The notes under the pieces: model-generated
Databases searched by the model: none
Told to the model about the DNA's origin: nothing
What the model saw: only the letters and a program-made list of their open reading frames with translations
DNA from: Candidatus Magasanikbacteria bacterium RIFOXYD12_FULL_33_17
GTDB taxonomy: Bacteria > Patescibacteriota > Patescibacteriia > Magasanikbacterales > UBA922
Direction of reading: 5' to 3'
Length of the DNA: 33,735 nucleotides
Assembly: GCA_001783255.1 (NCBI GenBank)
Contig: MFRB01000100.1
Location: forward strand, 14,653-48,387
Shown: positions 7,891-31,604 of the stretch, one piece after another
Layout of the letters: every line of letters begins with the position of its first letter
Numbering within the stretch: the first letter of the stretch is position 1
Made by a program: the position numbers and the translations under genes

Positions 7891-9090
7891 CTATATTTTT
7901 TCTTTATTTTCCTTAATCTTTTTTATTTCTTCTTTTAATTCAATCATCTTTAATTCTCTATTGACCATATTGGAGTTAAGTAACTCTAGTTCTTCAACAG
8001 TTTTATTCAATTTTACTTCTGTAATCTTAAATTTTTTTGTTTCTTCAATCATCTCTTTTTTAGTCTCATCTATCTGTAGGTGTAAAAAAATATTTTTTCT
8101 AAAAACAAAATACAAAAACAATAAAAATACTATCAATAAAAAGGCTACAAAATAAAAAAATGTATAACTACCTTGTGTATAATTTACAAAAACATCAGAT
8201 TGTATGTATTTTGCAGGAGTACTTAGCAAAATGCCCCAATAATAATCTGGTAATATTTGACTCTTCGTATAAGAAGTTACATAAGTATCCCCCCTAAACC
8301 CATAGGTTTGAAAACCTGTTTTTCCTAGACGTGCTTTTTGCAAAATATTGAGAGCATCACCAAAACCTACATAAACTTTTTTGACATAATCATCTTCAAT
8401 ATTTTTACCTATCAAATCATTGTCAACTGTCCAAAAGATATCTCCTTTACTGTCTAATACAAAAAATTCTGAACCAAACCACAGACTACTATCTTTCAAA
8501 TGTGTAAAAATGAAAGTATCTAAATCTACTAGCAAAACTAAAGTAGCTTGTTTATTTTTTTTATCATCAAAATAACTTTTGTAAATTTTGAATACATTAA
8601 CATTTTTTATATTGCTAGCCTCAATTTCTAATGAAAAAACTTTTGAAATTAAAAAATTTTGATCTGTTTTAAGAAAAAAATTTTCATCAAACTGTCTCAA
8701 GTTAATAACATCATTTGGAACACTACTTTCACAGACAATATTATTGTTGTTATCTACAAGATACCAACCATAAAATTCTTCGTCATCTAAGACACTTATA
8801 GAATTAGAACAATCAAAATCAGTACTACTAGTACTAAAAGAGACACTCTCAAAAAAATGGTCAACATTATGAAAAACATCTTTAAAATCATTTTTGACCT
8901 CCAGAGAAACCTGATTATCATAATTCAATCCAACCTGACCAAAATATTTGTTGTACTTATCCAAAAAATTATTATTATTTCTTTGAATCAAAAACCAAGA
9001 TAATAACAAAAAAATAATAGTAAAAAAAACAAAAGAACCTATTATAATACTATCAATTATTTTATTGCTAGAATTGTTAGATTCTTTCAT
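7891..9090 (-). CDS. Membrane protein with a Cache-like extracytoplasmic domain and a C-terminal coiled coil, with no recognisable output domain
   Basis: The track ORF starts at TTG (9126). I trimmed it to the first ATG (complement of 9088-9090, MKESNN...) because the TTG sits inside the upstream terminator hairpin. TM1 is IIIGSFVFFTIIFLLLSWFLI. The Cache-like core is VLDSKGDIFWTVDNDLIGKNI...GFQTYGFRGDTYVTSYTKSQILPDYYWGILLSTP. TM2 is FFYFVAFLLIVFLLFLYFVF. The tail is Lys/Glu-rich. Its stop codon lies 3 nt before the histidine kinase start. Confidence 0.7.
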   Translation of the reverse strand: MKESNNSSNKIIDSIIIGSFVFFTIIFLLLSWFLIQRNNNNFLDKYNKYFGQVGLNYDNQVSLEVKNDFKDVFHNVDHFFESVSFSTSSTDFDCSNSISVLDDEEFYGWYLVDNNNNIVCESSVPNDVINLRQFDENFFLKTDQNFLISKVFSLEIEASNIKNVNVFKIYKSYFDDKKNKQATLVLLVDLDTFIFTHLKDSSLWFGSEFFVLDSKGDIFWTVDNDLIGKNIEDDYVKKVYVGFGDALNILQKARLGKTGFQTYGFRGDTYVTSYTKSQILPDYYWGILLSTPAKYIQSDVFVNYTQGSYTFFYFVAFLLIVFLLFLYFVFRKNIFLHLQIDETKKEMIEETKKFKITEVKLNKTVEELELLNSNMVNRELKMIELKEEIKKIKENKEKI

Positions 9091-9124
9091 AAATGTTATT
9101 AGATAATTTTTATATTTGAAACAC

Positions 9125-9150
9125 AAAAAAGCTAGTCAAACTAGCTTTTT
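9125..9150 (-). terminator. Rho-independent terminator after the major pilin gene
   Basis: The minus-strand RNA reads AAAAAGCUAG-UUUGA-CUAGCUUUUUU. This is a perfect 10-bp inverted repeat (aaaaagctag / ctagcttttt) followed by a U-run, 76 nt downstream of the pilin stop. Confidence 0.75.
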
Positions 9151-9225: not shown

Positions 9226-9711
9226 CTATTTAGATATAGATATACTATCACTATTTTCTGATTCACAAGCTGCTACTTTTATGATGCCAGTATCATACTT
9301 TGTGATGGTATAGCCAGTCACACCTACACCCCAAGTTCCAGTACCATTTGGACTAACAGGTACTTCTCCCAGATAACCAGCAGTTACCAAAGCTGTTAAA
9401 TCAACACAATAAGCACTACCACCAACAGCAGTATCACAAGTCAAATTACAACCTTCAGTATCAGTACCAATCATATAGGTACTACCTGCTCCCATACTAT
9501 CAGCTATAGCTGTTGGATAATTACCACCATTATCTACTTGGTAAACTTTGACAGCCGAAATCAAAGCAGAAATATCTGCCCAACGACTTGAATCGCGTGC
9601 ATCTTGAAAACGTTTGAGTGGATCCAATGCCACAAAAACAACAGATGCTAAAATTGCAATGATAGAAATAACTATAAGTAACTCTATCAAAGTAAAACCT
9701 TTCTTAGCCAT
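9226..9711 (-). CDS. pilA: Type IV pilin (prepilin-type N-terminal cleavage/methylation motif); likely the major pilin
   Basis: 161 aa. MAKKG|FTLIELLIVISIIAILASVVFVAL carries the canonical G/FTLIE motif with Glu+5. DPLKRFQDARDSSRWADISALISAVKVY is a typical pilin alpha1-C. Four Cys lie in the C-terminal half. It is the last gene of the operon and is followed by a strong terminator. Confidence 0.85.
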   Translation of the reverse strand: MAKKGFTLIELLIVISIIAILASVVFVALDPLKRFQDARDSSRWADISALISAVKVYQVDNGGNYPTAIADSMGAGSTYMIGTDTEGCNLTCDTAVGGSAYCVDLTALVTAGYLGEVPVSPNGTGTWGVGVTGYTITKYDTGIIKVAACESENSDSISISK

Positions 9712-9740: not shown

Positions 9741-11492
9741 TTAATTATTTAGATTTAGTTCTTGTTTACTTGAAACTTTCACAACAATATTCAAAATATA
9801 CAAATTACTATCACTTGTCTTTTCTACAGAACTAATACTATATTCTTCAAATAAGTATGCTATACCAGACGTATTCATACTATCAATTTTGTTTTTAGCC
9901 AAAGTTTTAATATCCAAACTAGATAATATCAACCATCGATAATTGAAGTCATCTTTATTATCAATTTTTTCCAAAAAGTATTGATAGATTTCTTCTGAAA
10001 CTGATAATTCTGCGACAGCCCTCTCTTTGGATAAACTAACAATATAATCTTCTGTATCAATCTCAGAAATATTTAATTTTAAAATAACATCATTAAATAT
10101 TCTTCCCCTTATTCTATCTTTAGTATATTCATTTGCGATTGTGGCAACAGGAATTTTTACACTAATATCTTGTAGTTTATATTGTACCACATCTTGAATA
10201 CTTTTACTAATATCTAAATTTCGCTCTCTAACATCTCTACTATAGGCTCTGTAAAAGAAAGCACCAATAAGCAAAATTATAGACACAAACAAAGGTATAA
10301 CAAACCACAAAATACGACTAATCTTGTTACGATCTGGATTATACCTATCAAAATTTACATCTGAAGAAACACTAGCTAAATCAAAATGTTCATCCAAATT
10401 TTTGATATAATTAGTATCCTCTTTTTTCAAAATTTTTAAAGCGCCACTATTTTTAGTAATTTGTTTTTGATTTATAAATGGTTCATCTTCATAATCTTTG
10501 CTACTAAAAGATCTTAGAGCCAAACCAAAAGACTCAGCATATTCGATATCATCATTGGTAAAAGATTTTGAAATATTTAATAATTCAACAGGAAATTCAA
10601 AATGTTTTTGGATATAATCAATCAAACCATTCATTTTACTAGTACCACCCACTAACACTATTTTAGTTATTTGATGTTCTGCATCATCATTCACTTCGAT
10701 AATATTTTTTATGTCTGCAATTAATTTGTCTAAACCACTCTTTATAATATCATTTACATCTTCATCTACTCCATTCAAACCATTTTTAATTTTTTTCTGT
10801 TCAGCTTCTTCTAAACTCAAATTAAGTTTATTAGATATTTCTCTAGTAAAAAAATCACCAGCAATGTGATTGTTGTAACTAAAATAAAATCTAACTTTAT
10901 TTAAAATATTAATAGAAGTAGACTGTGCACCTAAATCAACTAAACAAATTTTTTCATCTTTTTTACCAAAGAAAATTGCACGACGCAAAGCCACTGGCTC
11001 AATATCAAAAAATTTAACCTTTATTCTGTTTTTTTCAAAAAAATCAAACCAATCACTAGCAGCATCCTTTGGTAAAGCTACCAACATACCTTTTACAACA
11101 TCATTATCCTCAGAAAAAACTTGATAACTATACAAAATATTATTGATCTTTTCTGGTATTATACCTTGCAATTCTTTCAAAACTAACTTTTCTCTATCTC
11201 TTTTATTATGTGGTGGCAAATGAAAAATATGTACATAAACCAAAGAATCTGGCAAACTTACAACAACATTTTCAAGCTTTATTTCTTTTGTTTTTGTGAC
11301 CAAAAAAAGTTGCTTAAATATTTCAGACAATTTTTGTGGATTTTTTATTCTCCCCCACTCTATCACACCTGGTTCTATCACTACCCTATTAAAATTTTTT
11401 AAGGTAGGTTTTTTTTCAGAACCAGAAAGCTCTAAAGTTGATATTGTATGATCGGCTATATCTAAACCGACAAAAGTTTCTTTTCCCCTCAT
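9741..11492 (-). CDS. pilM: PilM-like actin-fold pilus assembly protein fused to a TM helix and a C-terminal extracytoplasmic domain of about 170 aa
   Basis: 583 aa. The N-terminus FVGLDIADHTISTLEL and later CLVDLGAQSTSINIL and KIVLVGGTSKMNGL are the actin/HSP70-fold phosphate and adenosine motifs typical of PilM/FtsA. The TM helix ILWFVIPLFVSIILLIGAFFY sits at about residue 395 and occupies the position of PilN. The C-terminal domain is unassigned. Confidence 0.75.
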   Translation of the reverse strand: MRGKETFVGLDIADHTISTLELSGSEKKPTLKNFNRVVIEPGVIEWGRIKNPQKLSEIFKQLFLVTKTKEIKLENVVVSLPDSLVYVHIFHLPPHNKRDREKLVLKELQGIIPEKINNILYSYQVFSEDNDVVKGMLVALPKDAASDWFDFFEKNRIKVKFFDIEPVALRRAIFFGKKDEKICLVDLGAQSTSINILNKVRFYFSYNNHIAGDFFTREISNKLNLSLEEAEQKKIKNGLNGVDEDVNDIIKSGLDKLIADIKNIIEVNDDAEHQITKIVLVGGTSKMNGLIDYIQKHFEFPVELLNISKSFTNDDIEYAESFGLALRSFSSKDYEDEPFINQKQITKNSGALKILKKEDTNYIKNLDEHFDLASVSSDVNFDRYNPDRNKISRILWFVIPLFVSIILLIGAFFYRAYSRDVRERNLDISKSIQDVVQYKLQDISVKIPVATIANEYTKDRIRGRIFNDVILKLNISEIDTEDYIVSLSKERAVAELSVSEEIYQYFLEKIDNKDDFNYRWLILSSLDIKTLAKNKIDSMNTSGIAYLFEEYSISSVEKTSDSNLYILNIVVKVSSKQELNLNN

Positions 11493-11522: not shown

Positions 11523-11915
11523 CTAGATTTCACTACGACTATTCAGAGTAATTACATTGCCATCAAGAGTTACACTCACCTGCAAAGTTTGAGTATAATC
11601 ACCAACAGTTCCAACAATATTCAAAACTCTATCATTACCATTTGCTGATACAGCTATTATACACGATCCAGTACTTAAATTCAAAGTTTCTCCTGTGTAC
11701 GATGTATCCAAACGTAATTTTCTCAAACTTTCTTCCAAACAACCATCAGCAACACTATAAGATTCACCACCTTTTTTATTATCCAAAGTCATTTGAGCAT
11801 CATTTACTACAAGTTTTACAGAACTTAATGCCAAAATCAAAGCAGTGGCACCAATTATTAGAACCATCATAACCGCCATCATTCCTTTTTTATTATTTTT
11901 TAGTTGTCTGAACAT
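11523..11915 (-). CDS. Pilin-like protein lacking Glu+5 (PilX/GspK-like N-terminus)
   Basis: 130 aa. The sequence MFRQLKNNKKG|MMAVMMVLIIGATALILALS has a basic stretch, a Gly, then a hydrophobic helix without Glu at +5. Its small globular domain has two Cys (DGCLEE...TGSCIIAV). It lies between the pilM and minor-pilin genes. Confidence 0.6.
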   Translation of the reverse strand: MFRQLKNNKKGMMAVMMVLIIGATALILALSSVKLVVNDAQMTLDNKKGGESYSVADGCLEESLRKLRLDTSYTGETLNLSTGSCIIAVSANGNDRVLNIVGTVGDYTQTLQVSVTLDGNVITLNSRSEI

Positions 11916-11927
11916 AATTATAAAATT

Positions 11928-12446
11928 TTAATTTCTTATACTGGCCAAATTATTTTCACTTTGTGTAAAAGTAAAATCTTTACTAGCATTATCACCACTA
12001 TTATAATTTATAGTCAAAGAAAATTGTATATTTTTAGTAACAGAACCTATAGAAACATCTGTAAATTGTAAATTACTTACTTTTACCTCATGCGTTGTTA
12101 TATATACAGAATCACTAGTACCTTCTGTTATCTCTAGACGACCATTATCTTGATCAAGAGAAATAATGGTAGGATTCTTACCAACATCTGACATAGCTAA
12201 AGATAAGACACCAGGATCTGTATCAAAAGTAGAACTACCCACATTTATAGCATTGGCTTCCTGAATTTTTTTGGTAATTAAGGTCATAGCATCTCTCATA
12301 TTACTATGCACTTCTTGTACTACATAAGTCTTATTTCTAACCGATGTCATAGACATCGAAAATTTCATAAGACCAGTAGACACCAAAGCTACTATCGCAA
12401 CATAGATAAGTGTTTCAATTAGAGTAAAACCTTTTTTGTTAAACAT
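11928..12446 (-). CDS. Minor pilin with a prepilin-type N-terminal cleavage/methylation motif (PilW/GspJ-like by position and layout)
   Basis: 172 aa. MFNKKG|FTLIETLIYVAIVALVSTGL is a canonical motif with Glu+5. The subtype is an inference only. Confidence 0.75.
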   Translation of the reverse strand: MFNKKGFTLIETLIYVAIVALVSTGLMKFSMSMTSVRNKTYVVQEVHSNMRDAMTLITKKIQEANAINVGSSTFDTDPGVLSLAMSDVGKNPTIISLDQDNGRLEITEGTSDSVYITTHEVKVSNLQFTDVSIGSVTKNIQFSLTINYNSGDNASKDFTFTQSENNLASIRN

Positions 12447-12623: not shown

Positions 12624-13463
12624 TTATTTCTTTAATTTCTTTGCATTCTTTATTTTCAAAAAATTATTTTTTGATATCACCGATCTACCTATTTTTCTTT
12701 CAATTTGTTTTCTAGCTGTACCTGCAATTTGCCCACCAACTCTAGCATCATCTTTCAGACGTGGCAAACCTTTGGTATCTTTAGTTCGATGTATTTCTGT
12801 CGTGGTTCTTTCACTAAGCATAGTTAAAATTAACTCAAAATCATCCATGTGATCACGCAAATTATGTTGTTTCAATCCTTTGATTTTCTTATATTCTGAA
12901 GGGTTAACACCAAAGGTTGCTTTGGAAATTTCAGCTGTCAAAATTTCATAATCATGTTCATTTTCCACTCCTCGTTTTTGCCACTCATCCGTCAATTCCT
13001 CGCGAATGGCGATACCACGCATTCGTTTTTCAATCCAATCATCAGGATAACCCTTTAATTTGTAAAGTAATCTTGTCCTTTTGGTCGCCAGTTCCGGATT
13101 TTCTATTTCTTGCATTCTTTCATAGCCAACTTTGGCTAACCAGCGTTTTAAGGGCTCGGCTTTGGGTGAAGGAATTGACTGTATTATACGAAACATATTT
13201 TCAGTACTAGCACAGTCGGTTTCACGCATTTTTCCGTCTGGAGCTTTCAATTTCAACCCGTGACAAAATGTCACGACTTCACTACCCTCATCTTTTAATC
13301 TCTGTTTTAGCTTTCTCCAGTAAGCACCGGGATCAGAACTATCGGTAAGTACTCCTACTATATCAATAACAGAAAAATACCACTCTTTATTAAAGATAGT
13401 TTTCCTGATAGTTTTACCTTTGAATAAAACAATTTGATAATTTGGATTTTGTGTATCTACCAT
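12624..13463 (-). CDS. Bro-N domain protein with a DinD-like C-terminal region (phage antirepressor-like family)
   Basis: 279 aa. The N-terminal part (IRKTIFNKEWYFSVIDIVGVLTDSSDPGAYWRKLKQRL...IIQSIPSPKAEPLKRWLAKVGYERMQEIENPE) matches the widespread Bro-N family as I remember it. The C-terminal part (KGLKQHNLRDHMDDFELILTMLSERTTTEI...GGQIAGTARKQIE) resembles E. coli DinD. Its GC content is clearly higher than its neighbours. Confidence 0.8.
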   Translation of the reverse strand: MVDTQNPNYQIVLFKGKTIRKTIFNKEWYFSVIDIVGVLTDSSDPGAYWRKLKQRLKDEGSEVVTFCHGLKLKAPDGKMRETDCASTENMFRIIQSIPSPKAEPLKRWLAKVGYERMQEIENPELATKRTRLLYKLKGYPDDWIEKRMRGIAIREELTDEWQKRGVENEHDYEILTAEISKATFGVNPSEYKKIKGLKQHNLRDHMDDFELILTMLSERTTTEIHRTKDTKGLPRLKDDARVGGQIAGTARKQIERKIGRSVISKNNFLKIKNAKKLKK

Positions 13464-13477
13464 AAGAAATTTTAAAC

Positions 13478-16400
13478 TTACTTATAATTTATCCTCATTT
13501 CTTTGAACACCGGAGTACTAGTACCATCACCCAAAAGTTCCACACGATAACGTACGAAACGACGTCCATTCAAATAATTCGGCACAATACTACCAAAATA
13601 ATCTACAAAGTAAGCATCTGCACCCGTCACGCCATACCAAGGTGTCCAAGTACCAGGAACTCCGCCATTGTCTGGAGCAGTACTTACTTGAATTTTTATA
13701 GAACAATCAGTACAAGCTGTCAGATCTTCATCCCATTCTAAATATTGTGCAGGTGAAACATCACCCATATCAAAAGCTGAAGAAATGAAATAGGTTGAAG
13801 TAGCAAAACCACCACCAGAACCTGCTCCACTTCCACCGGCACCAGCTTGATCACTTCCTGAATCATAAAATATTTTCAAATCATCAAGCTGAACATGTTG
13901 AGTTCCATCACTTGATAATATTGCTTTTACAGAAATCTGACCAGTCGTAGTAGAAAAACTAGCAATATTATTATTAACGATATCAGCCGTATTATAATTT
14001 GTACTTCCTGCAGTAGACCAACTTGTTCCATTCCAATATTTCCAAGTACTACCGTTGTCTGAAAGTTGATAATATATTTGACCTCCATCTTTATTTGCCA
14101 CTTCTTCAAAACTAGTAAAAGCACTAGCTGAATGACTTTTATTTGAAACGGAAGTTACACTAGGGTTAGTCGTGTCATATGATGTACCAGCCGCAAATGG
14201 CACACTAGGTGGTGTAAAATTACTTGTCCATCTTGCAATATTGGAAAATCTAAGTTCATCTATTTCATATTGATTCATAGTATCATTAGCATATCTTGTG
14301 GCCAAAAAATTAAATTTTGAATCATGAATCCCTACGGTAACATTGAAAAGATTTTGTACTGTCATAACTCCATTTTGAAACATTCTCAAATAATGTCCAT
14401 CATAAGTAATTGCTAAATGATTCCAGACATCTAAAGGCATTGACACACTTGACCAAGCATAATATGTAGCTCCATCATTAGGTCTATAAAAATGGAACAT
14501 GGGCCTATCTCCAGCATAACTATCCATACGTAAATTATAATTACCATAACTTCCACTACCCAGAAAAACATAATTAGTATGATAACCACTATCATTATAA
14601 ATACGATGTTCTTTAATCCACATATCTATAGTAAAATTATTTGCCAAATCAGGCGCATCAACATTAGTAGCAACTCCACCTATATTCTGACCAGAATTAA
14701 CTTTGAAAGAATTATCAAATTTACCTATAGAACCAAATACTCCTGGAGGCGTATTTGGAGTCATATTTAAACCACCAACAGAATCAACCAAAGTACCACT
14801 AGTTTCGTCAAAATGCCACAAATTAGTTGTATGTTCATCTTCTGGTTCTGGAGTATATGCTAAAGTAACATCATCTACTTCAACTTGCTTTATACTATCG
14901 GATTTTAGCAAAGCCTTGAAAGTAAATTTTCCTGTTGATGTAGGAAAACTACTAATATGATCATTAACAACATTTATAGAATTATAATCATTTATATCAT
15001 TTATTACTTCCCAAATAGAACCATTCCAATATTGCCAAGTAGCACCATCATCATCAGACAATTGGTAATAAACATCTCCAGGATAAATAGTATTCACATT
15101 AGCAGACAAACCTCGCCAAGAATTAATATTTGGAATATATAAAGATTGTGTAGAAGTAGGATTTATACTTGGAAATTGTATAGAATAACCACTTACAGTA
15201 CGAGTAATAGGTATATCAATATTATCCAAAGCAACTTTTTGAGTACTATCACTAGAAAGAAAGGCTTTTACAGCAATACTATTGGTAGTTGTTGTGAAAC
15301 TACTAATATTTGTATTTACAACAGAAGCCGTATTAGACTCTGTCGAAGTCGTTGCCAAAGACCAAGTAGAACTAACACTATCCCAATAATACCAACTAGT
15401 ACCATTGTTAGACAATTGATAATATATTTCTCCACCATTTTTACTAGCCGTTTCAGTGAAACCATCCCAAGAATCAACACTAGAATCTACCCACAAAGAT
15501 GATTTTACTGATGGTTTTTCTGTAGAATAAGTAGCGACAGTATTTATATTAAATGTTGCTACATAAGTATAACCCATATAATTACTCGATTGGTCAGAAG
15601 CAATAGCAAAAATATTATCTTTTACTTGAACTACGTCTGGTACCAAACCATAATAGCTACCAAATTGATAAGAATCTATAAGAGTTGTGTTTATAATACC
15701 CCCTGGACTAATATGATAGGTATATAATTTACCATAACTATTTATATAATCTCCAGTAATCAAATAAGTATCATTACCAATAGAATAAATACTTGGTGCA
15801 AAAGCTGCCCAACTAGCAAAATAAGCTGATTGTATTTGAGTTAAATTACCGACAGTATCAACTTCAAATGTTTTCAAATAACCATCCCTATAAGCAGTAT
15901 TACTTCCAGAACTACAATATTTGTCAGGGTGAACTAAAGCGAAATGATTATCGGAAATCCTAACCATCCTAGTGTGTCTAGCATAACTATATGTAGTATA
16001 ACAATTATTTCCGTATGTCTTTAAATCAATTTTTGTAGTACTTACGATATTACCTGTATTTTCTATTTTTAAAGTTATAACGCTACCATGATTAACTGAA
16101 GTACTATTATAATTTAGATAATCATAAGCTATCGCATAAATATCCCCCGAAACATGTATCATATACTTATGCATATTATAACCTGGACTTTCTGCATAAT
16201 TAAAATAATCAATATAACTAGTGTTTATAATACCTGTTTCACTTATAGTATAAGTATAAACAACCACAGAAGTAGTACCATAAGTGATAGCATACTTATC
16301 AGTACTACCATCCAATTTTATAATTCCACCACCATATAATACTGAAGTATAAAACCTATAAGAATTTACTTGAGCTATAACACCACTAACACTAACACTA

Positions 16401-19400
16401 TACGTAGTAACATAACTATAAGTCGGAGAATATGTTGTATAAATTACAGCAAAATAACCATCACTTAACTTCACAACATCAAAATCCTCAGAAGAGGTAT
16501 ACTTACTACCAGATGAATAGATTTGCCCTACATTAATATAACTAAGGTCACTTGTACCAATAACTCCAGTATCACTTATACTTCTAGTTTTTAGATGAAA
16601 ATAAGCTCCTCCGCTTCCTGTAGAATAAGAATAAGCAACAAGATATATATTATTACGTATATTGGTTATACTTTGAGAATTTGGTGCATAGTAAGAAGAA
16701 CCAACATATTGATTTTGAATATAAGTTGTTGGTAAATCACCTATTGGATTACCAATATTTTTCAACTTAGCATTACTAGACTCAAATTCTACGAGAGAAT
16801 TATTATAAACATAATTTGTAGAAGTAGTATAATTATAAGTAAAAGTATCTGTAGGCGTATAATAAATCATACTAGCTTTACCACCTGAAACACTTATATA
16901 TAATGGATCATAATAATATTTAGCATAATCATCAAAAGTCCAAACATAATTAAAAGTAGCAAGACCTGTTTTCAGACCAACCTGCCCACCAGAAAATTCA
17001 ATCTTTTCATTATTATAACTATAATCACTACTATTTGTATAACTTTCATCAATTTCCTCTTTACAATTTACACCTATCGAATCTAATGCGATGTTTTGAT
17101 ATCCTTCACCTACCATAAAAGCTTTGAATGACATCAATCTTGTCGAAGTTGGAAATTCTGCAATATGAGTATCAATATCAACAGCCAGATTGTAATCAGT
17201 ACTCAAAGTAGATGTAGCCCATGAAGAACCATTCCAATACAACCAATTATCACCATTATCATTTGATAATTGATAATATATTTCTCCTGTATCACCTTTT
17301 GTGGCAGCTTCTGTAAAATCTTTCAAAACACCAGTCTCAGTAAATTGTAAAGGTTGGGCGGAACTTATGGTTTGAACTTGATCTGTATACAATTGACCAT
17401 AATAAGTATAAGACAAAGAAGCAACAGTAAATTGATAACCACCAGAATAAGTAGTATAAACAAAATTTAAATATTTATTAGTACTAACCAAAGAACCATT
17501 AATAATAGACATACTACTACCACTAAATACAAAAGTATCAAGTATAGCTGATATTGTACCATCTGAAACAATTGTAACTAAATCAAATACTCCTTGTTGA
17601 GTATTATTATCTGCATAAAAAATAGTATAAAAATCTCCACTAGTATGAACTAAACTACTACTATTACTTGAACCATCTAAATAATTCAAACTATTACCTG
17701 TCAAGTTTATATTACCAGCAGAATCAAAAATAAATGTAACTAAATAACCTTTATAGTTATAATCAGAGATACTGGCACTACCAGTATAATTTAAAACATA
17801 AAGATTTTGCCCAATATTTAAAATACTACCAGCATATCCTAAATTACCAGAACTATATTGGTAACTATCTAAAAAATCATTAGAAATATTACCATTATTA
17901 TCAATAGAAAAACTATTCAGATAAGCACCCGCACCAAGATTATTCCAATTAACGTCATAGAGAGTACCTCCCACCAACATCAAATAATTATCACCCGAAA
18001 TATTTGTCACGCTTTGTGGATAAGGATAAGTATAATCAGTTAATGCTGACAAAGTATCAATATTAGAGACACTACCACTATTATCTACTGAGATAGTCTT
18101 AATAATTACAGAGCCATTCTCTCCTCCGGCTACCCCACCAGTATAAGAATAAGCATAAAAAATATTATCATTTTTTTGACTTAAACCATATACATCTGTA
18201 ATACCCACCATTTCTGAAGCATCAAAAGGTTGTGTAATATTTCCTAAACTATCTACATCAATTATTTTAGCATAAGAGGTAGAAATCCAATTTGTAGTAT
18301 TATACTGAGAATAAAAAATCAAATATCTACTGGCACTACGCTGAAATATTTTTTGATTACCAAATGAGTAGCCAGCACCTCCCCCATATTGTAAATATTT
18401 TCCAGTATCAGTAATATTACCACTATTGTCTATATTAAACATTTTCAGATTTGCGTAAGTAAGTCCTGTTCCGGCAGTCAAATCTCCAGTAAAAAATACA
18501 CCAAACAAACCGGGAGACATTTGTTGAACATCATTAAAATAGCTATTAGGTATTTCACCATTATACATAGAAGAACTGATAAGAACAGCATTACCTAAAC
18601 TATCTACACTAAATGTTTCTATAAAACCAACAGAATAATTACTAACTCCAGATCCATTAATATACTGACCGGAATAAAACACAGCATAGACATCCCCATA
18701 AACATGTTTTATTTTTGCATTACTAGGTTGATTTGCCTGAAGATTTAAAATACTAGAAGCTTGTATATTACCTAGTTCATCCATTGAATATATTTTCAAA
18801 CGTCCAGGATAAGGCGAAACATACTCATAATAAGCCACAGCATAAACACTACCAAATAAATTAGTAGGCGTATTATACGTATAACCATTAGTAATATCGC
18901 TAGCTAAAAAAGCATCACCTAAACCATTGATCTCAGCAGTACCAGTTTCTGTCAAATGAGCTGTACCGTCAGCAACTTCTATTTGTGCATTATCATAAAT
19001 GTAATCAGTAGAAGTAGTAAAAGACCAACCAGTATTCATACAAGAAGCTACTTGACCTGCCATTTCCAAAATCTTAACTTCACCAGCCGTACTATAATCA
19101 ATATTTTCATCATCACTATCATAACCAGCAGTATCACTCAAAACACTCTGCCCTGGACCACTACTCCAATCGGTCTGCGTCCATTCTCTTGAATCCCAAT
19201 TGGTCAGATAAAATTCTCTATCCACTGAATTCGTAACACCAGGTCTGACTTCCCAACTAACGGCTACATTGACCTTTTTTGATTGCAAATCATTTATACC
19301 AGTAGCACAATCTTCAATAGCATTAGTATTACTATTACGACAAACATTGGAAAAAGTAACAGTACGCGTATAATCACCTATTGTCTGAATATTAGTACCA

Positions 19401-19657
19401 TCAAAAGTCCAATCATATCCAGCGATAGAAACAGATGAATCAGAATATAAATCATTCCAAGCATTATCTTTTATAGCTCTAATAGACTCTACTGCTTGCT
19501 GTGCCAAAGCTTCTGCACCTGATTGTTTGCTACCTTGTACCAAAGAACCAATATTACCAACAGAAGTACCAGCAATAGCCGAAGCCATCAACGCAAAAAT
19601 AGCCATAGCCAGAATAATCCCTAAAATACTTTGCCCCTTTGTGTTGACAACAAACAT
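13478..19657 (-). CDS. Giant (2059 aa) pilin-headed multi-domain surface protein; candidate pilus-associated adhesin
   Basis: The N-terminus MFVVNTKG|QSILGIILAMAIFALMASAIAG is class-III-signal-like and has no Glu+5. A small pilin-like domain follows (to about nt 19150). The rest comprises two arrays of repeats of about 55-60 aa, four modules of about 85 aa with YYQLS[DN]x(D)GxxW, a LamG/ConA-like domain (NLWHFDETSGTLVDSVGG...DVWNHLAITYDG...YEIDELRFSN), a Gly-rich linker (GAGGSGAGSGGG, about 13808-13867) and a 109-aa C-terminal domain (13481-13807). Confidence 0.85.
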   Translation of the reverse strand: MFVVNTKGQSILGIILAMAIFALMASAIAGTSVGNIGSLVQGSKQSGAEALAQQAVESIRAIKDNAWNDLYSDSSVSIAGYDWTFDGTNIQTIGDYTRTVTFSNVCRNSNTNAIEDCATGINDLQSKKVNVAVSWEVRPGVTNSVDREFYLTNWDSREWTQTDWSSGPGQSVLSDTAGYDSDDENIDYSTAGEVKILEMAGQVASCMNTGWSFTTSTDYIYDNAQIEVADGTAHLTETGTAEINGLGDAFLASDITNGYTYNTPTNLFGSVYAVAYYEYVSPYPGRLKIYSMDELGNIQASSILNLQANQPSNAKIKHVYGDVYAVFYSGQYINGSGVSNYSVGFIETFSVDSLGNAVLISSSMYNGEIPNSYFNDVQQMSPGLFGVFFTGDLTAGTGLTYANLKMFNIDNSGNITDTGKYLQYGGGAGYSFGNQKIFQRSASRYLIFYSQYNTTNWISTSYAKIIDVDSLGNITQPFDASEMVGITDVYGLSQKNDNIFYAYSYTGGVAGGENGSVIIKTISVDNSGSVSNIDTLSALTDYTYPYPQSVTNISGDNYLMLVGGTLYDVNWNNLGAGAYLNSFSIDNNGNISNDFLDSYQYSSGNLGYAGSILNIGQNLYVLNYTGSASISDYNYKGYLVTFIFDSAGNINLTGNSLNYLDGSSNSSSLVHTSGDFYTIFYADNNTQQGVFDLVTIVSDGTISAILDTFVFSGSSMSIINGSLVSTNKYLNFVYTTYSGGYQFTVASLSYTYYGQLYTDQVQTISSAQPLQFTETGVLKDFTEAATKGDTGEIYYQLSNDNGDNWLYWNGSSWATSTLSTDYNLAVDIDTHIAEFPTSTRLMSFKAFMVGEGYQNIALDSIGVNCKEEIDESYTNSSDYSYNNEKIEFSGGQVGLKTGLATFNYVWTFDDYAKYYYDPLYISVSGGKASMIYYTPTDTFTYNYTTSTNYVYNNSLVEFESSNAKLKNIGNPIGDLPTTYIQNQYVGSSYYAPNSQSITNIRNNIYLVAYSYSTGSGGAYFHLKTRSISDTGVIGTSDLSYINVGQIYSSGSKYTSSEDFDVVKLSDGYFAVIYTTYSPTYSYVTTYSVSVSGVIAQVNSYRFYTSVLYGGGIIKLDGSTDKYAITYGTTSVVVYTYTISETGIINTSYIDYFNYAESPGYNMHKYMIHVSGDIYAIAYDYLNYNSTSVNHGSVITLKIENTGNIVSTTKIDLKTYGNNCYTTYSYARHTRMVRISDNHFALVHPDKYCSSGSNTAYRDGYLKTFEVDTVGNLTQIQSAYFASWAAFAPSIYSIGNDTYLITGDYINSYGKLYTYHISPGGIINTTLIDSYQFGSYYGLVPDVVQVKDNIFAIASDQSSNYMGYTYVATFNINTVATYSTEKPSVKSSLWVDSSVDSWDGFTETASKNGGEIYYQLSNNGTSWYYWDSVSSTWSLATTSTESNTASVVNTNISSFTTTTNSIAVKAFLSSDSTQKVALDNIDIPITRTVSGYSIQFPSINPTSTQSLYIPNINSWRGLSANVNTIYPGDVYYQLSDDDGATWQYWNGSIWEVINDINDYNSINVVNDHISSFPTSTGKFTFKALLKSDSIKQVEVDDVTLAYTPEPEDEHTTNLWHFDETSGTLVDSVGGLNMTPNTPPGVFGSIGKFDNSFKVNSGQNIGGVATNVDAPDLANNFTIDMWIKEHRIYNDSGYHTNYVFLGSGSYGNYNLRMDSYAGDRPMFHFYRPNDGATYYAWSSVSMPLDVWNHLAITYDGHYLRMFQNGVMTVQNLFNVTVGIHDSKFNFLATRYANDTMNQYEIDELRFSNIARWTSNFTPPSVPFAAGTSYDTTNPSVTSVSNKSHSASAFTSFEEVANKDGGQIYYQLSDNGSTWKYWNGTSWSTAGSTNYNTADIVNNNIASFSTTTGQISVKAILSSDGTQHVQLDDLKIFYDSGSDQAGAGGSGAGSGGGFATSTYFISSAFDMGDVSPAQYLEWDEDLTACTDCSIKIQVSTAPDNGGVPGTWTPWYGVTGADAYFVDYFGSIVPNYLNGRRFVRYRVELLGDGTSTPVFKEMRINYK

Positions 19658-19672: not shown

Positions 19673-20161
19673 TTAATTTTTTTCAACCATACCAAAACTA
19701 TTGACACTAATATTTTTTTGACCAGTAATACTATGAGACAAAATTAGTGAACCAGTATTATTTGGCAAACCAAGTCCACCTTTTGTAAAATTAATATCAA
19801 TATTATTATTTGAAAGTGTAAAAGAACTATTGCTAATAGCCAAAACACTTTTCAATTCAGTAGTTTGATCATAATCCTGATTTCTGGCAGTATAAGAATC
19901 GCCTTGATAAAAAATAAAAGAATCAACACCACTATTATTTATTACAAAGTAAACACCATGTGCAGAATCATTATAACCAACAAGAGACTGCCCTCTAGCA
20001 GTCCTCAATATTTGTACAATATCAGCCGAACTATCTAATAATTGTAATTTACCTTGAAAATTACCATAAACAGGAACAGCTGCAGCAACAATAATAGAAG
20101 TAATAGCCAAAACTACAATCAACTCATACAAAGTAAAGCCCTTACTATTTTTGAAAAACAT
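19673..20161 (-). CDS. Minor pilin with a prepilin-type N-terminal motif (GspH/FimT-like)
   Basis: 162 aa. MFFKNSKG|FTLYELIVVLAITSIIVAAAV has Glu+5. The following DSSADIVQILRTARGQSLV resembles the GspH/FimT layout. The subtype is tentative. Confidence 0.75.
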   Translation of the reverse strand: MFFKNSKGFTLYELIVVLAITSIIVAAAVPVYGNFQGKLQLLDSSADIVQILRTARGQSLVGYNDSAHGVYFVINNSGVDSFIFYQGDSYTARNQDYDQTTELKSVLAISNSSFTLSNNNIDINFTKGGLGLPNNTGSLILSHSITGQKNISVNSFGMVEKN

Positions 20162-20177: not shown

Positions 20178-21263
20178 CTAATTGGAGATATTTCCTGTAA
20201 TATTGTAAATAGGTGTAATAATAGATATAGCTAAAAATCCCACAACAACGCCTATAAACAAAAGTAATATTGGCTCCAAAGCTGTAGACAAATTTTTGGT
20301 AGAATTATCCACTTCTTCCTCGTAAAATTCTGAAATATACAAAAGTGTATCTTCAATCTTACCAGCTTCTTCACCCACATAAACCAAACGAGAAACCATC
20401 TTTGGGAAAAGATTCTTATGATTTTTTAAACTTTCAGAAACTTTGACACCTTTTTTGATACGCAAAGATATATCACGAATAGCTTTTTTATAATAATAAT
20501 TTTCCAAAGACTTTTCAGTAACACTCAAAGCTTCATCAATACTAAGTCCACTACGCAATAGACTACCAAAAATACGAGAAAAGCGTGCTAAGTTGGAATT
20601 ACGTACAATATTTTTTATAATAGGAAAATGTAAAAGAATCCAGTGTGTTACAGGATGAGAAATTTTTTGTTTAACCAAAAAGATAACAAAAGTAACCACA
20701 ACGATTATCAACCAAAACAAAATCTGTTGATAATCATTTACAAAATTAGAAAAATCGATAAGCAAACGTGTACTCAAAGGCAAATCCATTTTTAATCCCT
20801 CAAACAAGGGTATTATTTTAGGCAAAATCAAAAAAGACATAGCCATAGCCAAAACAAAAGAAGCTACCAAAACTATGATAGGATAAAACATGGCTCCTTT
20901 AATTTTGTCCAATAATTGTTTTTCTTTTTTGAGTGTTTCTGACAAATTTTCTAAATTTTCTCCTAAAGTACCAGATTTTTCACCAGCATAAATAGAACTA
21001 ATAAAAATACCCGAAAAAACATTTGGATGTCTAGCAAAAGATTCAGCTAAAGTATTACCAGATTTTACAGAAATTAAAATATCTTCCAATATTCTTTTAA
21101 GTCTGCTTTGTGTAGATTCAATCATTATTGATAAAGACTCGACAATATCAATACCAGCTTTTTGCATCACAGCTAGATTTTTTGCCAACAAAGATTTTTG
21201 ATTCAAACTTATAAAACCAATAGAAAAATCTTTTTTAAAAAAATCAGTATTAAATTTTGACAT
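20178..21263 (-). CDS. pilC: Type IV pilus platform protein PilC (GspF family)
   Basis: 361 aa with two GspF-type repeats (LAKNLAVMQKAGIDIVESLS...; LARFSRIFGSLLRSGLSIDEALS...) and three TM segments, including the C-terminal PILLLFIGVVVGFLAISIITPIY. It sits immediately downstream of the ATPase gene. Confidence 0.9.
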   Translation of the reverse strand: MSKFNTDFFKKDFSIGFISLNQKSLLAKNLAVMQKAGIDIVESLSIMIESTQSRLKRILEDILISVKSGNTLAESFARHPNVFSGIFISSIYAGEKSGTLGENLENLSETLKKEKQLLDKIKGAMFYPIIVLVASFVLAMAMSFLILPKIIPLFEGLKMDLPLSTRLLIDFSNFVNDYQQILFWLIIVVVTFVIFLVKQKISHPVTHWILLHFPIIKNIVRNSNLARFSRIFGSLLRSGLSIDEALSVTEKSLENYYYKKAIRDISLRIKKGVKVSESLKNHKNLFPKMVSRLVYVGEEAGKIEDTLLYISEFYEEEVDNSTKNLSTALEPILLLFIGVVVGFLAISIITPIYNITGNISN

Positions 21264-21302: not shown

Positions 21303-23009
21303 TTACAACTGAGTTACTCTCATCACTTCTTGAATAGTTGTTACCCCATTCAAAACTTTTTCAATTCCATCGTAAAGCATAGTTGTCATACCTTCTTCTT
21401 TGGCTTTTTTTAAAATTTCATCACTAGAAGCATGTGTCAAAATTAAATTACGAATACTCTCATTTACTTCTAATATTTCAAAAATACCAAAACGGTCATT
21501 GTAGCCAGTATTATTACAAACTTTACAACCAACACCTTTATAAATTCTAGAAGTACTAAAATCTTTAACATTCAAATCCGCTAAAATATGTTTGAAATCT
21601 GCATTTTCAGACAAAATAGCCATTTCTTCTTTGGTCAATTTGTAAGAAGTACGACAATGATTACAAATTTTACGTACAAGTCTCTGAGCAATTACTAAAT
21701 TGATAGTAGAAGAAACTAAAAAAGGCTGAATACCCATATCCAAAAGACGAGGCAACGCTGTGACAGCATCATTGGTATGCAAAGTAGACAATACAAGATG
21801 ACCTGTCAAGGCAGAGTTGATAGCAATATCAGCTGTCTCAGCATCACGAATTTCACCAACCATCAAAATATCCGGATCTTGACGAACCAAAGCACGCAAA
21901 CCTTTGGCAAATGTAAGATTTGTTTTAGGATTAACTTGAATCTGTGTTACACCTTCAATATCATATTCTACAGGATCTTCAATAGTAGCCATGTTTATTT
22001 CACGTTTATTCAAAAGTTTCAAAATAGAATATAAACTAGTTGTTTTGCCACTACCAGTTGGACCTGTAACCAAAACCATGCCGTGTGGATTTTTGATAGC
22101 TTTCTTTATTTTTTTCAAATTATCATCAGATAAACCCAAATCAATCAAACCTAATTGTTTATTCTTTGGATACAACAAACGCATTACAATATTTTCGCCA
22201 TAAGTGATAGGAACAATAGAAATACGTACATCCAACCAATTGTCATTTATAAGATAGCGCATTTTACCATCTTGCGCAGCAAAATGAATATCTGTAGCCA
22301 TCTTAGATAAGATTTTGATACGAGTCAAAATAAAACTCAAAAAATCTCTAGGCGCCTTATCTTTTTCGACAACAAAAACATCATGCATCACACCATCAAT
22401 ACGGAAACGAAAAGTTATTCTATCTACTTGTGGTGTAATATGGATATCTGAAGCACGATTTTCATAACCATATTTCAAAACCATATCCACAAATTCTACT
22501 ACAATATCATCTTTTTCTTCATTACTTAATCTAGAATTGTTAAGACTTTTTAAAATTTTTGTTACATCAGAATCAATATCAGAACCATAAACAGATAAAG
22601 CTTTTTCCAAATCATCATCATCTATATAATATACTTTTACAACCTGCCCAATTTTTTTCTCAATAAAATTTTTACTTTCTAAGTCTTTTGGATTCTGCAT
22701 ACCAAGTTTCACACCCTCAACATCTGAACTAATAGCAACCACGCCTTTATTACGTGCTACTATTTCTGGTATTAATTTGACAATATTTGGATCTAATTTT
22801 TCATTTGTCAAATTGATATATGGTACAGCAAAATATTCAGCAACAGCTTGTCCAATAATATCTTTACTCAAAACATTTTCCACAAAAAAATACTCCATCA
22901 AACTAGTGTTGTGTGATTTTGCATATTTTTTTGCATTGTTAAAGTCTTTTTCTTCAAGATAACCTTGATCAAGTAAAATTTCTTTTAATTGTTGCTCAGT
23001 AAATTGCAT
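21303..23009 (-). CDS. pilB: Type IV pilus assembly ATPase PilB (GspE family)
   Basis: 568 aa. Walker A is VTGPTGSGKTT. The Asp box and Walker B are RQDPDILMVGEIRD. The His box is GHLVLSTLHTN. The tetra-Cys zinc motif is CNHC...GCKVCNNTGY. An N-terminal GSPII_E_N-like domain is present. Confidence 0.95.
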   Translation of the reverse strand: MQFTEQQLKEILLDQGYLEEKDFNNAKKYAKSHNTSLMEYFFVENVLSKDIIGQAVAEYFAVPYINLTNEKLDPNIVKLIPEIVARNKGVVAISSDVEGVKLGMQNPKDLESKNFIEKKIGQVVKVYYIDDDDLEKALSVYGSDIDSDVTKILKSLNNSRLSNEEKDDIVVEFVDMVLKYGYENRASDIHITPQVDRITFRFRIDGVMHDVFVVEKDKAPRDFLSFILTRIKILSKMATDIHFAAQDGKMRYLINDNWLDVRISIVPITYGENIVMRLLYPKNKQLGLIDLGLSDDNLKKIKKAIKNPHGMVLVTGPTGSGKTTSLYSILKLLNKREINMATIEDPVEYDIEGVTQIQVNPKTNLTFAKGLRALVRQDPDILMVGEIRDAETADIAINSALTGHLVLSTLHTNDAVTALPRLLDMGIQPFLVSSTINLVIAQRLVRKICNHCRTSYKLTKEEMAILSENADFKHILADLNVKDFSTSRIYKGVGCKVCNNTGYNDRFGIFEILEVNESIRNLILTHASSDEILKKAKEEGMTTMLYDGIEKVLNGVTTIQEVMRVTQL

Positions 23010-23017: not shown

Positions 23018-23386
23018 TTAAATTCCTAAAACTTTTTTAATATGGTCCACTACTTCAGCAATAGTGGTGTCTGATTTTACGAAATAATCTTTGGCTCCCA
23101 AACCAAGAGCTTTTTCAATGTCTTCTTTTTGATTAAGATTGGTAGATACGATTACAGGTACTTTTATTTTACTTTCTTTCATATCTGTCAAAACCGAAAA
23201 ACCATCTTTATTAGGCATCATCAAATCTAATAATAATAAATCATATTTATTAGCAACCAACTCCTTTAGAGCGCTTACACCATCAAATACTACTACCGTT
23301 TCAAATCCAGCTTTGTTAAGCTTAATTTCCAAAGCACGAGCCATTGGCTTTTCGTCTTCGGCAATCAAAATTTTCTTTTCAGCCAT
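23018..23386 (-). CDS. Stand-alone REC-domain response regulator (CheY/PilH-like), first gene of the pilus operon
   Basis: 122 aa. Motifs are KILIAEDEKPMA, DLLLLDLMMPNKDG, VIVSTNL and GAKDYFVK. No output domain is present. Confidence 0.9.
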   Translation of the reverse strand: MAEKKILIAEDEKPMARALEIKLNKAGFETVVVFDGVSALKELVANKYDLLLLDLMMPNKDGFSVLTDMKESKIKVPVIVSTNLNQKEDIEKALGLGAKDYFVKSDTTIAEVVDHIKKVLGI

Positions 23387-24926: not shown

Positions 24927-25526
24927 TCAATCACCTAGGAATACTTCTTCAACAGGATATTTTATAAAGCACTCGTTTAATCCATCCATTCCAAAACGCT
25001 TAAACCAAGTTGAATTACTGGAATATTTGTAATGAAAAGACTTTTCTAAACTTGTAACTAGGCCATGCTTGAAAGGATTTTTTATTATATAATTGAAATG
25101 CTTCCAAAAGTCAGCTTTGTTTCTGATACAATAATCGAAGTATTGATACCAGATTTTGCGACCAGGAGTGTCATCTTGTTTATTAATTAATAAGCTTGTT
25201 ATAACATGTAGTCTTTTTATAAATTTTACCAACGTACTTTGATATGAAATATTATGATCAGATTTAGGAGTGGTGAACGTAAGTTCGCCCAGTGAACACA
25301 ATATATGATAATGATTATTTAATAAAAACCAACTATAGATTTTTATATTTAATTCTTTTTGTAAATTTTGCAATACTGAAACAAAGATATCCTTCTTTTG
25401 AGATGTACTAAAATATTTTTTACCTTCAAGACAACGCCCTATGATAAAATAATATGCTCCTTCTACATAAATATGATGTGGACGATTTATGTGTTCCTTA
25501 CCATGTTTAATACCATCATTATACAT
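24927..25526 (-). CDS. REP-associated tyrosine transposase-like protein (RAYT / IS200-type Y1 HUH family)
   Basis: I trimmed the track ORF to the ATG at 25524-25526 (MYNDGIKHGKEH...), which is preceded by a GGGGG Shine-Dalgarno-like run 6 nt upstream. The HUH motif is NNHYHIL. The C-terminal motif KIWYQYFDYCIRNKADFWKHFNYIIKNPFKHGLV matches the Y...IR...Y(I/V)..NP.K.GLV signature of RAYT/COG1943 proteins. Confidence 0.8.
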   Translation of the reverse strand: MYNDGIKHGKEHINRPHHIYVEGAYYFIIGRCLEGKKYFSTSQKKDIFVSVLQNLQKELNIKIYSWFLLNNHYHILCSLGELTFTTPKSDHNISYQSTLVKFIKRLHVITSLLINKQDDTPGRKIWYQYFDYCIRNKADFWKHFNYIIKNPFKHGLVTSLEKSFHYKYSSNSTWFKRFGMDGLNECFIKYPVEEVFLGD

Positions 25527-25582
25527 AATTAACCCCCTAATTATAAACTCAGCAAACTTACGTTTGCCACTCCTACAAAATA

Positions 25583-26728
25583 TCACTTCACCAACATCTC
25601 TAAAAATTCTCTAGCTGTTTTATCCCAATTGAATTTATCTTTTTGGGAGAAACAAACATTGTCTTTTTTATTTTTTATAACTTCTAGCAAAGAATTTTTT
25701 AATTCTATAATATTATGTGGATTAACCAACTTCACACCATCATCCACAATTTCTGACAAAGATGAACGGTTACTAGTAATAACAGGCACTTGCGAAATCA
25801 AAGCCTCCAAGACAGGAAAACCAAAACCTTCATACAAACTAGGATAAACAAATAGCTCAGCTAATTTGTAAAGAGCAGGTTTATCTTCAGCATCAACATA
25901 ACCAATATAATTGACTCCCCTAGTATTATCGATACTAGAGATTATTTTGTCATATTTCCAACCACGTGTACCAGCAATTACTAGATGTATCTTTTTATTT
26001 ATCAAATTTGATTTACGATAAGCATCTATAATAGACAAAATATTTTTACGAGGCTCAAGAGTACCTAAGAAAAAGATAAATTTCTCTGGTAAATTGTATT
26101 TACACTTTAATTTTTCTCTATCAATATTTTGTGACAAAAATTGTAAAAATTTTTTACTAATTCCTGGATACAAAACTTTGATAGAATTAGGATTAAGATG
26201 ATAGACATCTACTAAATCATTTTTGGTATTTTGCGATGGCGTAAAAACAAAATGAGCTTTGTGAACCTGTTGTCTAGTCTTGATAAGACTATGCCACAAT
26301 AACATTTTTTTACTAAAACAACTTGGTAAAAATTCAAAACTCAAATCATGCACAGTCAAAACATGTTTCGTATCTTTTGATAAATTGGTAAAATTAAAAT
26401 TTGGTGAAAACCAATAATCTAATCTATCTACTCTTGTGCTTGTTAATTTTTTATTTACCTGACTTTGCAATAATTTATCCAAATTAAAAATTTTTAATAA
26501 CAATAATATATTAAAGATCTTATTTGGAAATTTCGTAGCTACAAAATGAACATTCGCCTGTAGCCAATTTGGCAAACCATCTCTAACATCTTTGAAAGAA
26601 TTATAGAACAAAAAATAATTATTTTCTTTATCCAAAGCAAAAAGACTATCCAAAAGCTCATAAGTATACTCACCTACTCCTGTACGTTTTTTGTCAGTCA
26701 GACTACGGATGTCAATTGCAATATTCAT
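25583..26728 (-). CDS. Glycosyltransferase, family 4
   Basis: The track ORF begins at TTG (26809). I trimmed it to the ATG at 26726-26728 (MNIAIDIRSL..KRTGVGEY), which aligns with the N-terminus of the paralog at 23658-24767. The C-terminal motif is FVYPSLYEGFGFPVLEA. Confidence 0.85.
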   Translation of the reverse strand: MNIAIDIRSLTDKKRTGVGEYTYELLDSLFALDKENNYFLFYNSFKDVRDGLPNWLQANVHFVATKFPNKIFNILLLLKIFNLDKLLQSQVNKKLTSTRVDRLDYWFSPNFNFTNLSKDTKHVLTVHDLSFEFLPSCFSKKMLLWHSLIKTRQQVHKAHFVFTPSQNTKNDLVDVYHLNPNSIKVLYPGISKKFLQFLSQNIDREKLKCKYNLPEKFIFFLGTLEPRKNILSIIDAYRKSNLINKKIHLVIAGTRGWKYDKIISSIDNTRGVNYIGYVDAEDKPALYKLAELFVYPSLYEGFGFPVLEALISQVPVITSNRSSLSEIVDDGVKLVNPHNIIELKNSLLEVIKNKKDNVCFSQKDKFNWDKTAREFLEMLVK

Positions 26729-29679: not shown

Positions 29680-29687
29680 CTTAATTA

Positions 29688-31472: not shown

Positions 31473-31522
31473 AGAACATACTATTAATCTAAAAAGATCC
31501 CAAGCAATCCTTATTTTTATAG

Positions 31523-31604
31523 TGTCGAAGGGGGGACTCGAACCCCCACGCCCTTGCGAGCCTAACACCTCAAGCTAGTGTGTATACCATTCCACCACTC
31601 CGAC
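31523..31604 (-). tRNA. tRNA-Leu (anticodon GAG), class II with a long variable arm and no encoded CCA
   Basis: I folded it by hand. The acceptor stem is GTCGGAG/CTTCGAC with one G-U pair. The D stem is 3 bp with GG in the loop. The anticodon stem is CTAGC/GTTAG with loop TTGAGGT (anticodon GAG, G37). The variable arm is GCTC-GCAA-GGGC. The T arm is GGGGG-TTCGAGT-CCCCC. The discriminator is A. Confidence 0.9.

Follow-up and report, generated by a model that had tools for sequence, protein, structure and literature searches.

What is a protein of 2059 residues, which begins like a type IV pilin and continues as a long string of repeats and lectin-like modules, doing among the minor pilin genes of a pilus operon? 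The question is raised by a 33,735-nucleotide stretch of contig MFRB01000100.1 (assembly GCA_001783255.1, positions 14,653 to 48,387 of the forward strand) from Candidatus Magasanikbacteria bacterium RIFOXYD12_FULL_33_17, hereafter the window, from whose first letter all coordinates are counted. An initial annotation, made from the letters alone, had proposed that a GspK-like tip-pilin anchor and a very large adhesin are fused here in one polypeptide. Our analysis confirmed the underlying observation and partly supported the interpretation. Within a Patescibacteria (Ca. Magasanikbacteria-like) pilus, the giant protein is likely a modular type IV minor pilin that acts as a pilus-tip adhesin; a fragment 100 % identical to it is annotated as Ca. 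Magasanikbacteria. The gene and its N-terminal features are located as follows:

13478..19657, minus strand: whole open reading frame (ORF) of the giant, likely a modular minor pilin; 2059 aa, ATG start, ~226 kDa, GAST content 36 %

19571..19657, minus strand: class III (prepilin-type) signal; leader MFVVNTK, Gly at -1, hydrophobic segment, Gly and not Glu at +5

19058..19657, minus strand: pilin head module, aa 1-200, delimited by an AlphaFold2 (AF2) model, family alignments and a profile scan

Re-reading of the sequence bore out both the 2059-aa frame and its class-III-like N-terminus lacking Glu at +5. The protein begins MFVVNTKG|QSILGIILAMAIFALMASAIAG (the bar marks the cut, thus MFVVNTKG|QSILG...), a short basic leader preceding a hydrophobic stretch of ~21 residues. 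This is the layout of a class III signal, in which a short hydrophilic leader ending in Gly is followed by about 20 hydrophobic residues, and Gly8 of the leader is invariant across the family alignment. The family was collected with a profile of the head, run as a full HMMER scan over 1.84 billion representatives, which returned 291 clusters at E<=1e-30 and 2767 at E<=1e-10; among the matches listed, the head is N-terminal in nearly all members. Of the best 146 members, 111 have a recognisable motif and 104 of these keep Glu5; Gly5 is limited to the small clade of the window copy (L009-L011, P0001, P0003-P0005 and P0180, L denoting loci and P proteins). More distant relatives have the canonical N-terminus G|QSLLE(V/I)..., and ten of eleven family heads matched the N_methyl model PF07963 (best E 1.1e-6), the window copy being the exception; precomputed PF07963 matches are present on P0010, P0022 and P0023. 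Because Glu5 and the N_methyl matches are family-wide, the N-terminus can be assigned to a genuine prepilin family. The same evidence, together with synteny, led us to reject an ordinary Sec signal or an unrelated anchor, in agreement with the pilin-type reading of the initial annotation. Glu5 is ancestral in the family and its loss derived in the window's clade. The Glu5-to-Gly site is entered at 19643-19645 of the window (codon 5 of the mature protein).

The AF2 model of aa 1-205, computed from an alignment of 45 sequences, predicts a 53-residue helix (aa 11-63) followed by an antiparallel beta-sheet (aa 77-152), which is the lollipop fold expected of a type IV pilin. Its predicted local distance difference test score (pLDDT) is 75.5 overall and 85-95 in the core. 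The head further contains the conserved Cys106 and Cys117 and a conserved motif, NWDSxEWxQxDWSGGxGQ. We conclude that the head of the giant is a true type IV pilin module. In one relative, P0011, an insert of more than 300 aa separates the N-terminal helix of the head from its beta-sheet, and module grafting is therefore possible inside the head as well as after it.

The second line of evidence is the place of the gene. The giant lies in an operon that also encodes PilB, PilC, PilM and other pilins, that is, together with type IV pilus machinery. All its genes are on the minus strand and are transcribed in the order response regulator, PilB, PilC, m1, giant, Bro-N, m3, m4, PilM fusion and major-type pilin, m1, m3 and m4 being the other minor pilins:

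21303-23009, minus strand: PilB assembly ATPase (T2SSE, E 6e-124)

20178-21263, minus strand: PilC platform protein (T2SSF, E 1e-52)

19673..20161, minus strand: m1, 162-aa canonical N_methyl minor pilin (G|FTLYE) with a weak GspH-type match

12624-13463, minus strand: Bro-N gene, 279 aa (PF02498, E 1.6e-10), between the giant and m3

11928..12446, minus strand: m3, 172-aa canonical N_methyl minor pilin (G|FTLIETLIY)

11523..11915, minus strand: m4, 130-aa pilin-like protein (KKG|MMAVMMVLIIG) with two conserved Cys

9741-11492, minus strand: PilM-type fusion

9226-9711, minus strand: major-type pilin, 161 aa

The flanks are as first described, with m1 directly adjacent to the giant and two pilin-like genes beyond an inserted gene; the label 'GspH-like' given to m1 rests on a sub-threshold match confined to the N-terminal 55 residues. 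Six homologous loci were read in detail, seven when the window is included, and all six have the order PilB-PilC-m1-BIG-m3-m4-PilM-major pilin, BIG being the slot of the giant. In five of the six, the BIG protein shares with the window protein only the head and the tail (the conserved C-terminal domain described below), or is 41 % identical to it over two-thirds of the giant; the sixth locus has a 310-aa version consisting of head plus tail in the same slot. The other subunits are uniform, with m1 at 142-165 aa (G|FTLxE), m3 at 162-174 aa (G|FTLIETLIY) and m4 at 130-141 aa. A scan of one genome per species yielded 39 loci with the same order wherever the contig extends far enough, and none of the Patescibacteria homologues in this set lies outside a pilus operon. 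The minor-pilin slot and the synteny proposed for homologues are thereby upheld. None of the three outcomes that would have spoken against the initial annotation turned up: the Patescibacteria homologues lie in pilus loci, the N-terminus is of pilin type throughout the family, and the head is modelled as a pilin lollipop. The homologues are found in Magasanik-, Ryan-, Falkow- and Vogelbacteria, Paceibacterota and Parcubacteria. In some lineages the neighbouring slots are enlarged too: m1 to ~550-620 aa (L021, L022, L024, L025), m3 to 345-537 aa (L012, L015, L025) and m4 to 318-630 aa (L030, L034, L040). Modular extension is therefore not confined to the giant's slot.

Several results weigh against the reading of the giant as a pilus-tip minor pilin. 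Residue 5 of its mature form is Gly instead of Glu, and its own N-terminus matched neither N_methyl model, PF07963 or TIGR02532, in the Pfam and NCBIfam scans. A Foldseek search of the head model against the PDB gave nothing significant (best E 0.07, to unrelated folds), nor did a search with the model of the last YYQLS module and the tail, whose weak matches were mostly to carbohydrate-binding module (CBM) and jelly-roll sandwiches. Because no solved structure matched significantly, the assignment of the head to a pilin class, discussed below, rests on gene order and weak matches. The window holds no prepilin peptidase gene; in L005 such a gene adjoins the operon. Sequence and profile searches of the PDB with the head, the tail, the YYQLS module, m3, m4 and the full-length protein retrieved only generic pilin N-terminal helices.

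Some of these points would suit a protein whose pilin-like helix is only an anchor, cleaved or not, the giant then remaining at the cell surface or being borne by a very short pseudopilus instead of travelling out on a long filament. Glu5, which usually aids the incorporation of a pilin into the filament, is lost in the window's clade, the window lacks a retraction ATPase gene as well as the peptidase gene, and a chain of ~226 kDa with flexible links could span the envelope alone. We nevertheless consider a membrane-anchored surface adhesin unlikely. The place of the gene in a four-gene minor-pilin block between PilC and PilM is strictly conserved, and a single type of head carries a series of sizes from 200 to 2414 aa, as would be expected if it functions like any ordinary minor pilin. 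In the Saccharibacterium N. lyticus TM7x, moreover, PilX2 affects a host binding that is attributed to the thin pilus (PMC11623550).

If the giant is a minor pilin at the pilus tip, which position does it take? GspK is the tip pseudopilin that lacks Glu5 and caps the GspH-I-J-K complex, and the initial annotation had drawn its analogy with this subunit. On that account the giant would be a GspK/PilX-type cap, a topmost subunit in which Glu5 is not needed and which places the adhesin at the very apex. The Gly at +5 of the window copy and its close relatives agrees with it, the apex is sterically the easiest place for bulky modules, and the head profile aligned with m4 at an hhalign probability of 79 %, against 44 % with m3, mostly over the helix. 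Yet the lack of Glu5 is a trait of one clade and not of the family, and the giant is second in its block, not last. In each of the seven loci read in detail, the last and smallest subunit, m4, is without Glu5 (G|(M/V)AA(L/V)xxV...); it is still present in the window's clade. Neither the giant nor any of the eleven heads matched GspK or PilX_N in the Pfam and NCBIfam scans, and a GspK-like alpha-domain insertion is not seen in the head model. We therefore abandoned the GspK analogy for the giant, which makes an improbable cap. The candidate for a PilX/GspK-type cap is m4; PilX_N matched one of the seven m4 orthologues in the Pfam scan, at E 0.028, and since this match is marginal the label remains inferential. 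The window's block thus holds two subunits without Glu5, the giant and m4, the latter being retained in the clade.

The order m1-BIG-m3-m4 parallels the GspH-I-J-K and FimU-PilV-PilW-PilX operons, and the giant occupies the second place, that of GspI and PilV. Sub-threshold NCBIfam matches of the heads converge on the same class: GspI in 8 of 11 (best E 0.0031), ComGE in 7 of 11 (3.4e-5), PilV in 4 of 11 (0.0014) and XpsI in 4 of 11. The head is most likely a GspI/PilV-class member of a four-pilin priming/tip complex, to which the second place in an H-I-J-K-like block, the Glu5 of the giant's family and these weak matches all point. Against this likeness stand the facts that every match falls below its curated cutoff, that GspI is smaller than the ~200-aa head, that no structural match is significant, and that the window copy lacks Glu5. 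The window copy's own head gave no GspI, PilV, XpsI or ComGE match in NCBIfam, sub-threshold hits included.

Beyond the head, the giant is extended by ~1850 residues of probable binding domains:

17420..18886, minus strand: repeat array 1, aa 258-746, 7-8 blade-like units of ~55 aa; putative beta-propeller

17048..17380, minus strand: YYQLS beta-sandwich module 1, aa 760-870

15539..16690, minus strand: repeat array 2, aa 990-1373, 7 blade-like units of ~55 aa; putative beta-propeller

15188..15520, minus strand: YYQLS module 2, aa 1380-1490

14843..15175, minus strand: YYQLS module 3, aa 1495-1605

14231..14653, minus strand: LamG/ConA-like domain PF13385, aa 1669-1809 (Pfam E 2e-12, 47.9 bits against a cutoff of 27.6)

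13853..14155, minus strand: YYQLS module 4, aa 1835-1935, beta-sandwich (AF2 pLDDT ~85-96)

13802..13852, minus strand: Gly-rich flexible linker, aa 1936-1952, seen in the sequence and disordered in the model (pLDDT <50)

13481..13801, minus strand: conserved C-terminal 'tail' beta-sandwich, aa 1953-2059 (107 aa), with a CxxC motif (AF2 pLDDT ~80-94)

These data substantiate what had been said of the region, namely repeats, a lectin-like module and a Gly-rich linker, and with the head model they show that a single polypeptide unites a pilin module with a very large array of modules that probably serve binding. The sole domain of the giant recognised in the Pfam scan is Laminin_G_3 (PF13385). 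The ~55-aa periodicity of the two arrays, whose units were counted with a hidden Markov model trained on the giant's own repeats, suggests two putative beta-propellers. The blades matched no Pfam family; those related to array 1 occur in P0006-P0014, and the blade family, absent from Pfam, reaches beyond Patescibacteria. P0013 (2028 aa) combines such blades with beta-helix domains, and P0014 joins an archaeal-type pilin N-terminus (PF07790) to LamG and the same ~55-aa blade repeats. The four modules of ~110 aa bearing the [IV]YYQLS motif are interrelated. In the AF2 model of aa 1835-2059, the fourth of them and the tail form two confident beta-sandwiches separated by the disordered linker. Comparison of the tail with the YYQLS module (hhalign probability 16 %) is only suggestive of a diverged module of this type. 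A search for homologues with the tail profile returned only short C-terminal fragments on tiny contigs and no sign of the tail outside the family.

What unites the family is an N-terminal region of ~175-200 residues and, usually, the C-terminal ~105; on one head the proteins range from ~200 to 2414 aa: members of ~200-235 aa consist of the head only (e.g. P0032, P0036), those of ~310 aa of head and tail (P0016, P0018), and those of 500-2414 aa carry inserted modules in addition. Among the best 146 members the median is 848 aa, 11 reach at least 1500 aa and 3 at least 2000 aa; the tail is present in 112, at the extreme C-terminus in 109, and YYQLS modules occur in 67. Between relatives the middle is a mosaic. 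The giant and P0001 are 99 % identical in propeller 1, 71 % in the head, 77 % in propeller 2 and 79 % in LamG, whereas the giant and P0003/P0004 are 93-94 % identical in the tail, 74 % in the head and 30-42 % in the propellers and LamG. The head and the terminal domain are thus kept around a strongly differing middle, a pattern that fits a changing binding specificity. Comparison of the window with L001 shows 94 % identity in the tail, which exceeds that of every other operon protein (PilB, 84.5 %). Recent recombination or transfer was rejected as the cause, since the synonymous divergence of the tail is nearly normal; this divergence indicates purifying selection and a strong constraint. The organisation of the family, with its conserved head, hypervariable mosaic middle and strongly conserved tail over ~200-2414 aa, appears to be undescribed.

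Taken with the gene order, the family membership and the fold of the head, these features suggest how the giant could work. Its N-terminal hydrophobic helix would insert it into the membrane, and a prepilin peptidase would cleave after Gly8. The ~200-aa head would then join m1, m3 and m4 in a priming complex that starts assembly and ends at the filament tip, probably in the second, GspI/PilV-like position. The ~1850 residues that follow would be carried outward on the growing pilus, so that a single copy of the giant would be displayed at its tip. There, to judge from the domain types and from analogues studied experimentally, the outward modules would form a multivalent adhesin for glycans or proteins of host cells or surfaces. 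The middle modules may change the binding specificity while the head and the terminal domain are kept, and the tail may have a conserved partner.

A pilus tip could also bind DNA, and the giant might be a receptor for natural transformation, as ComZ of Thermus is, rather than a cell adhesin. Patescibacteria pili have often been proposed to serve DNA uptake, ComZ is itself a large modular pilin (PMC8179133), and the heads give the weak ComGE matches noted above. We regard such a receptor as very improbable. The one domain that could be recognised belongs to the lectin/glucanase type, and propellers and CBM-like sandwiches typically bind glycans or proteins. The giant showed no DNA-binding signature, and a hypervariable middle is not expected of a receptor that binds DNA independently of sequence.

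How does the giant compare with known systems? The initial annotation knew of no characterised example of this architecture, and on this point it has to be revised. Modular pilins are widespread, counting more than 1200 proteins in 264 architectures; they act as adhesins, PF13385 is among their grafted carbohydrate-binding modules, and their exposure at the tip has been argued to be probable (PMC8179133). One of the 15 commonest architectures is even illustrated by a Ca. Magasanikbacteria protein (PMC8179133). In S. sanguinis, the modular pilins PilB and PilC carry a vWA module and a ConA-like lectin module, respectively (PMC9934059). With its head module, PF13385 domain, repeat arrays and beta-sandwich modules, the giant has the composition of a modular pilin and shares with that group the ConA-like lectin and the predicted tip exposure. 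It differs in scale, since the described modular pilins are mostly bimodular and the most extreme multi-domain case named has 860 aa, against ~10 modules in 2059 aa here, and the conserved terminal domain and mosaic middle of its family are not described there (PMC8179133). The window copy would escape a census based on IPR012902, because its N-terminus misses the motif model.

Experimentally studied parallels come from the same superphylum. In N. lyticus TM7x, PilX1 consists of a pilin and a jelly-roll and PilX2 of a pilin and a seven-bladed propeller; PilX2 is required for efficient host binding and not for filament extrusion, and no PilD-type signal was predicted for either, that of PilX2 being non-canonical (PMC11623550). 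As described, both share with the giant a lollipop head followed by C-terminal jelly-roll (PilX1) or propeller (PilX2) domains, both are the largest pilins of their loci, and both have a GAST content of ~36 %. The 36 % of the giant (21 % in PilB of the window) uses the measure, and falls in the range, given for exposed TM7x pilins (PMC11623550). The TM7x proteins carry, however, a single extra domain each against ten modules in the giant, and the PilX2 propeller is built of RCC1 repeats, unlike the giant's blades, which have no Pfam family. Given the examples in PMC8179133 and PMC11623550, the fusion of a pilin anchor to an adhesin was already known, also in Patescibacteria.

Two further groups resemble the giant in function or layout. 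PilY1/PilC of type IVa pili are large propeller-bearing adhesins presented by the minor-pilin tip complex, and the function proposed for the giant is the same, but PilY1 is a separate non-pilin chain that docks on the minor pilins, whereas the giant would unite anchor and adhesin in one chain. Membership of the giant in the PilY1 family was rejected, as no PilY1/Neisseria_PilC domain was matched in Pfam and the N-terminus is of pilin type. In CofB/TcpB of type IVb pili and ComZ of Thermus, beta-rich domains follow or interrupt a pilin module, and these proteins have been proposed or shown to lie at the tip and bind ligands (PMC8179133); they belong to other pilus classes, have no sequence similarity to the giant and are much smaller. 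The giant is, in sum, an exceptionally large, multi-module representative of the modular minor pilins, in a family widespread among Patescibacteria.

The remaining genes complete the picture of the locus. The Bro-N gene is regarded as an insertion because none of the six homologous loci read in detail contains it; it has a G+C content of 0.355, compared with 0.30 in the window, and is followed by an AT-rich gap of 177 bp. In the PilM homologue, a fusion of 583 aa, an N-terminal part of ~310 aa that matches PilM precedes a transmembrane segment and a C-terminal region of ~190 aa with no family match. Signalling genes flank the operon on the minus strand, with the response regulator (23018-23386) upstream of PilB and, downstream of the major pilin, a dCache protein (7891-9126) and a dCache-PAS-HisKA-HATPase kinase (5077-7887). 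Similar kinase and regulator genes adjoin the operon in L001, L004, L006 and L007, and their recurrence suggests a dedicated regulation of the pilus. Farther away, a 219-aa ORF (24927-25586, minus strand) amid glycosyltransferase genes has a weak, sub-cutoff match to an IS200-like Y1 transposase (E 3.5e-4). A bacterial class A RNase P RNA lies at 29687-30255 (minus strand, 127.7 bits); at 569 nt against a model of 367 positions, it must contain large insertions. At 31522-31604 (minus strand), a tRNA-Leu(GAG) gene runs into the 5' end of a mechanically called ORF, 30306-31568, that starts at GTG and lacks a Pfam match; given this overlap, the true start of the ORF is probably further downstream.

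To our knowledge, the way in which ultrasmall episymbionts recognise and hold their hosts is largely unknown, and experiments have so far linked a single surface structure, the pilus, to host binding, in Saccharibacteria only. In this context the variable middle of the giant's family is an obvious candidate determinant of host or substrate specificity. More tentatively, the family could be a general host-recognition device of Patescibacteria pili, with the loss of Glu5 marking a changed position in the tip complex or a changed role in assembly in the window's clade. If this were true, the head and the strongly constrained terminal domain would enclose a cassette whose propeller, lectin and sandwich modules are exchanged through recombination, as in the receptor-binding proteins of bacteriophages. 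Censuses of modular pilins based on the N-terminal motif miss the largest members. The family provides concrete targets for binding assays and a basis for predicting host range from metagenomes; modular pilins are probably used by ultrasmall symbiotic bacteria to grip other cells.

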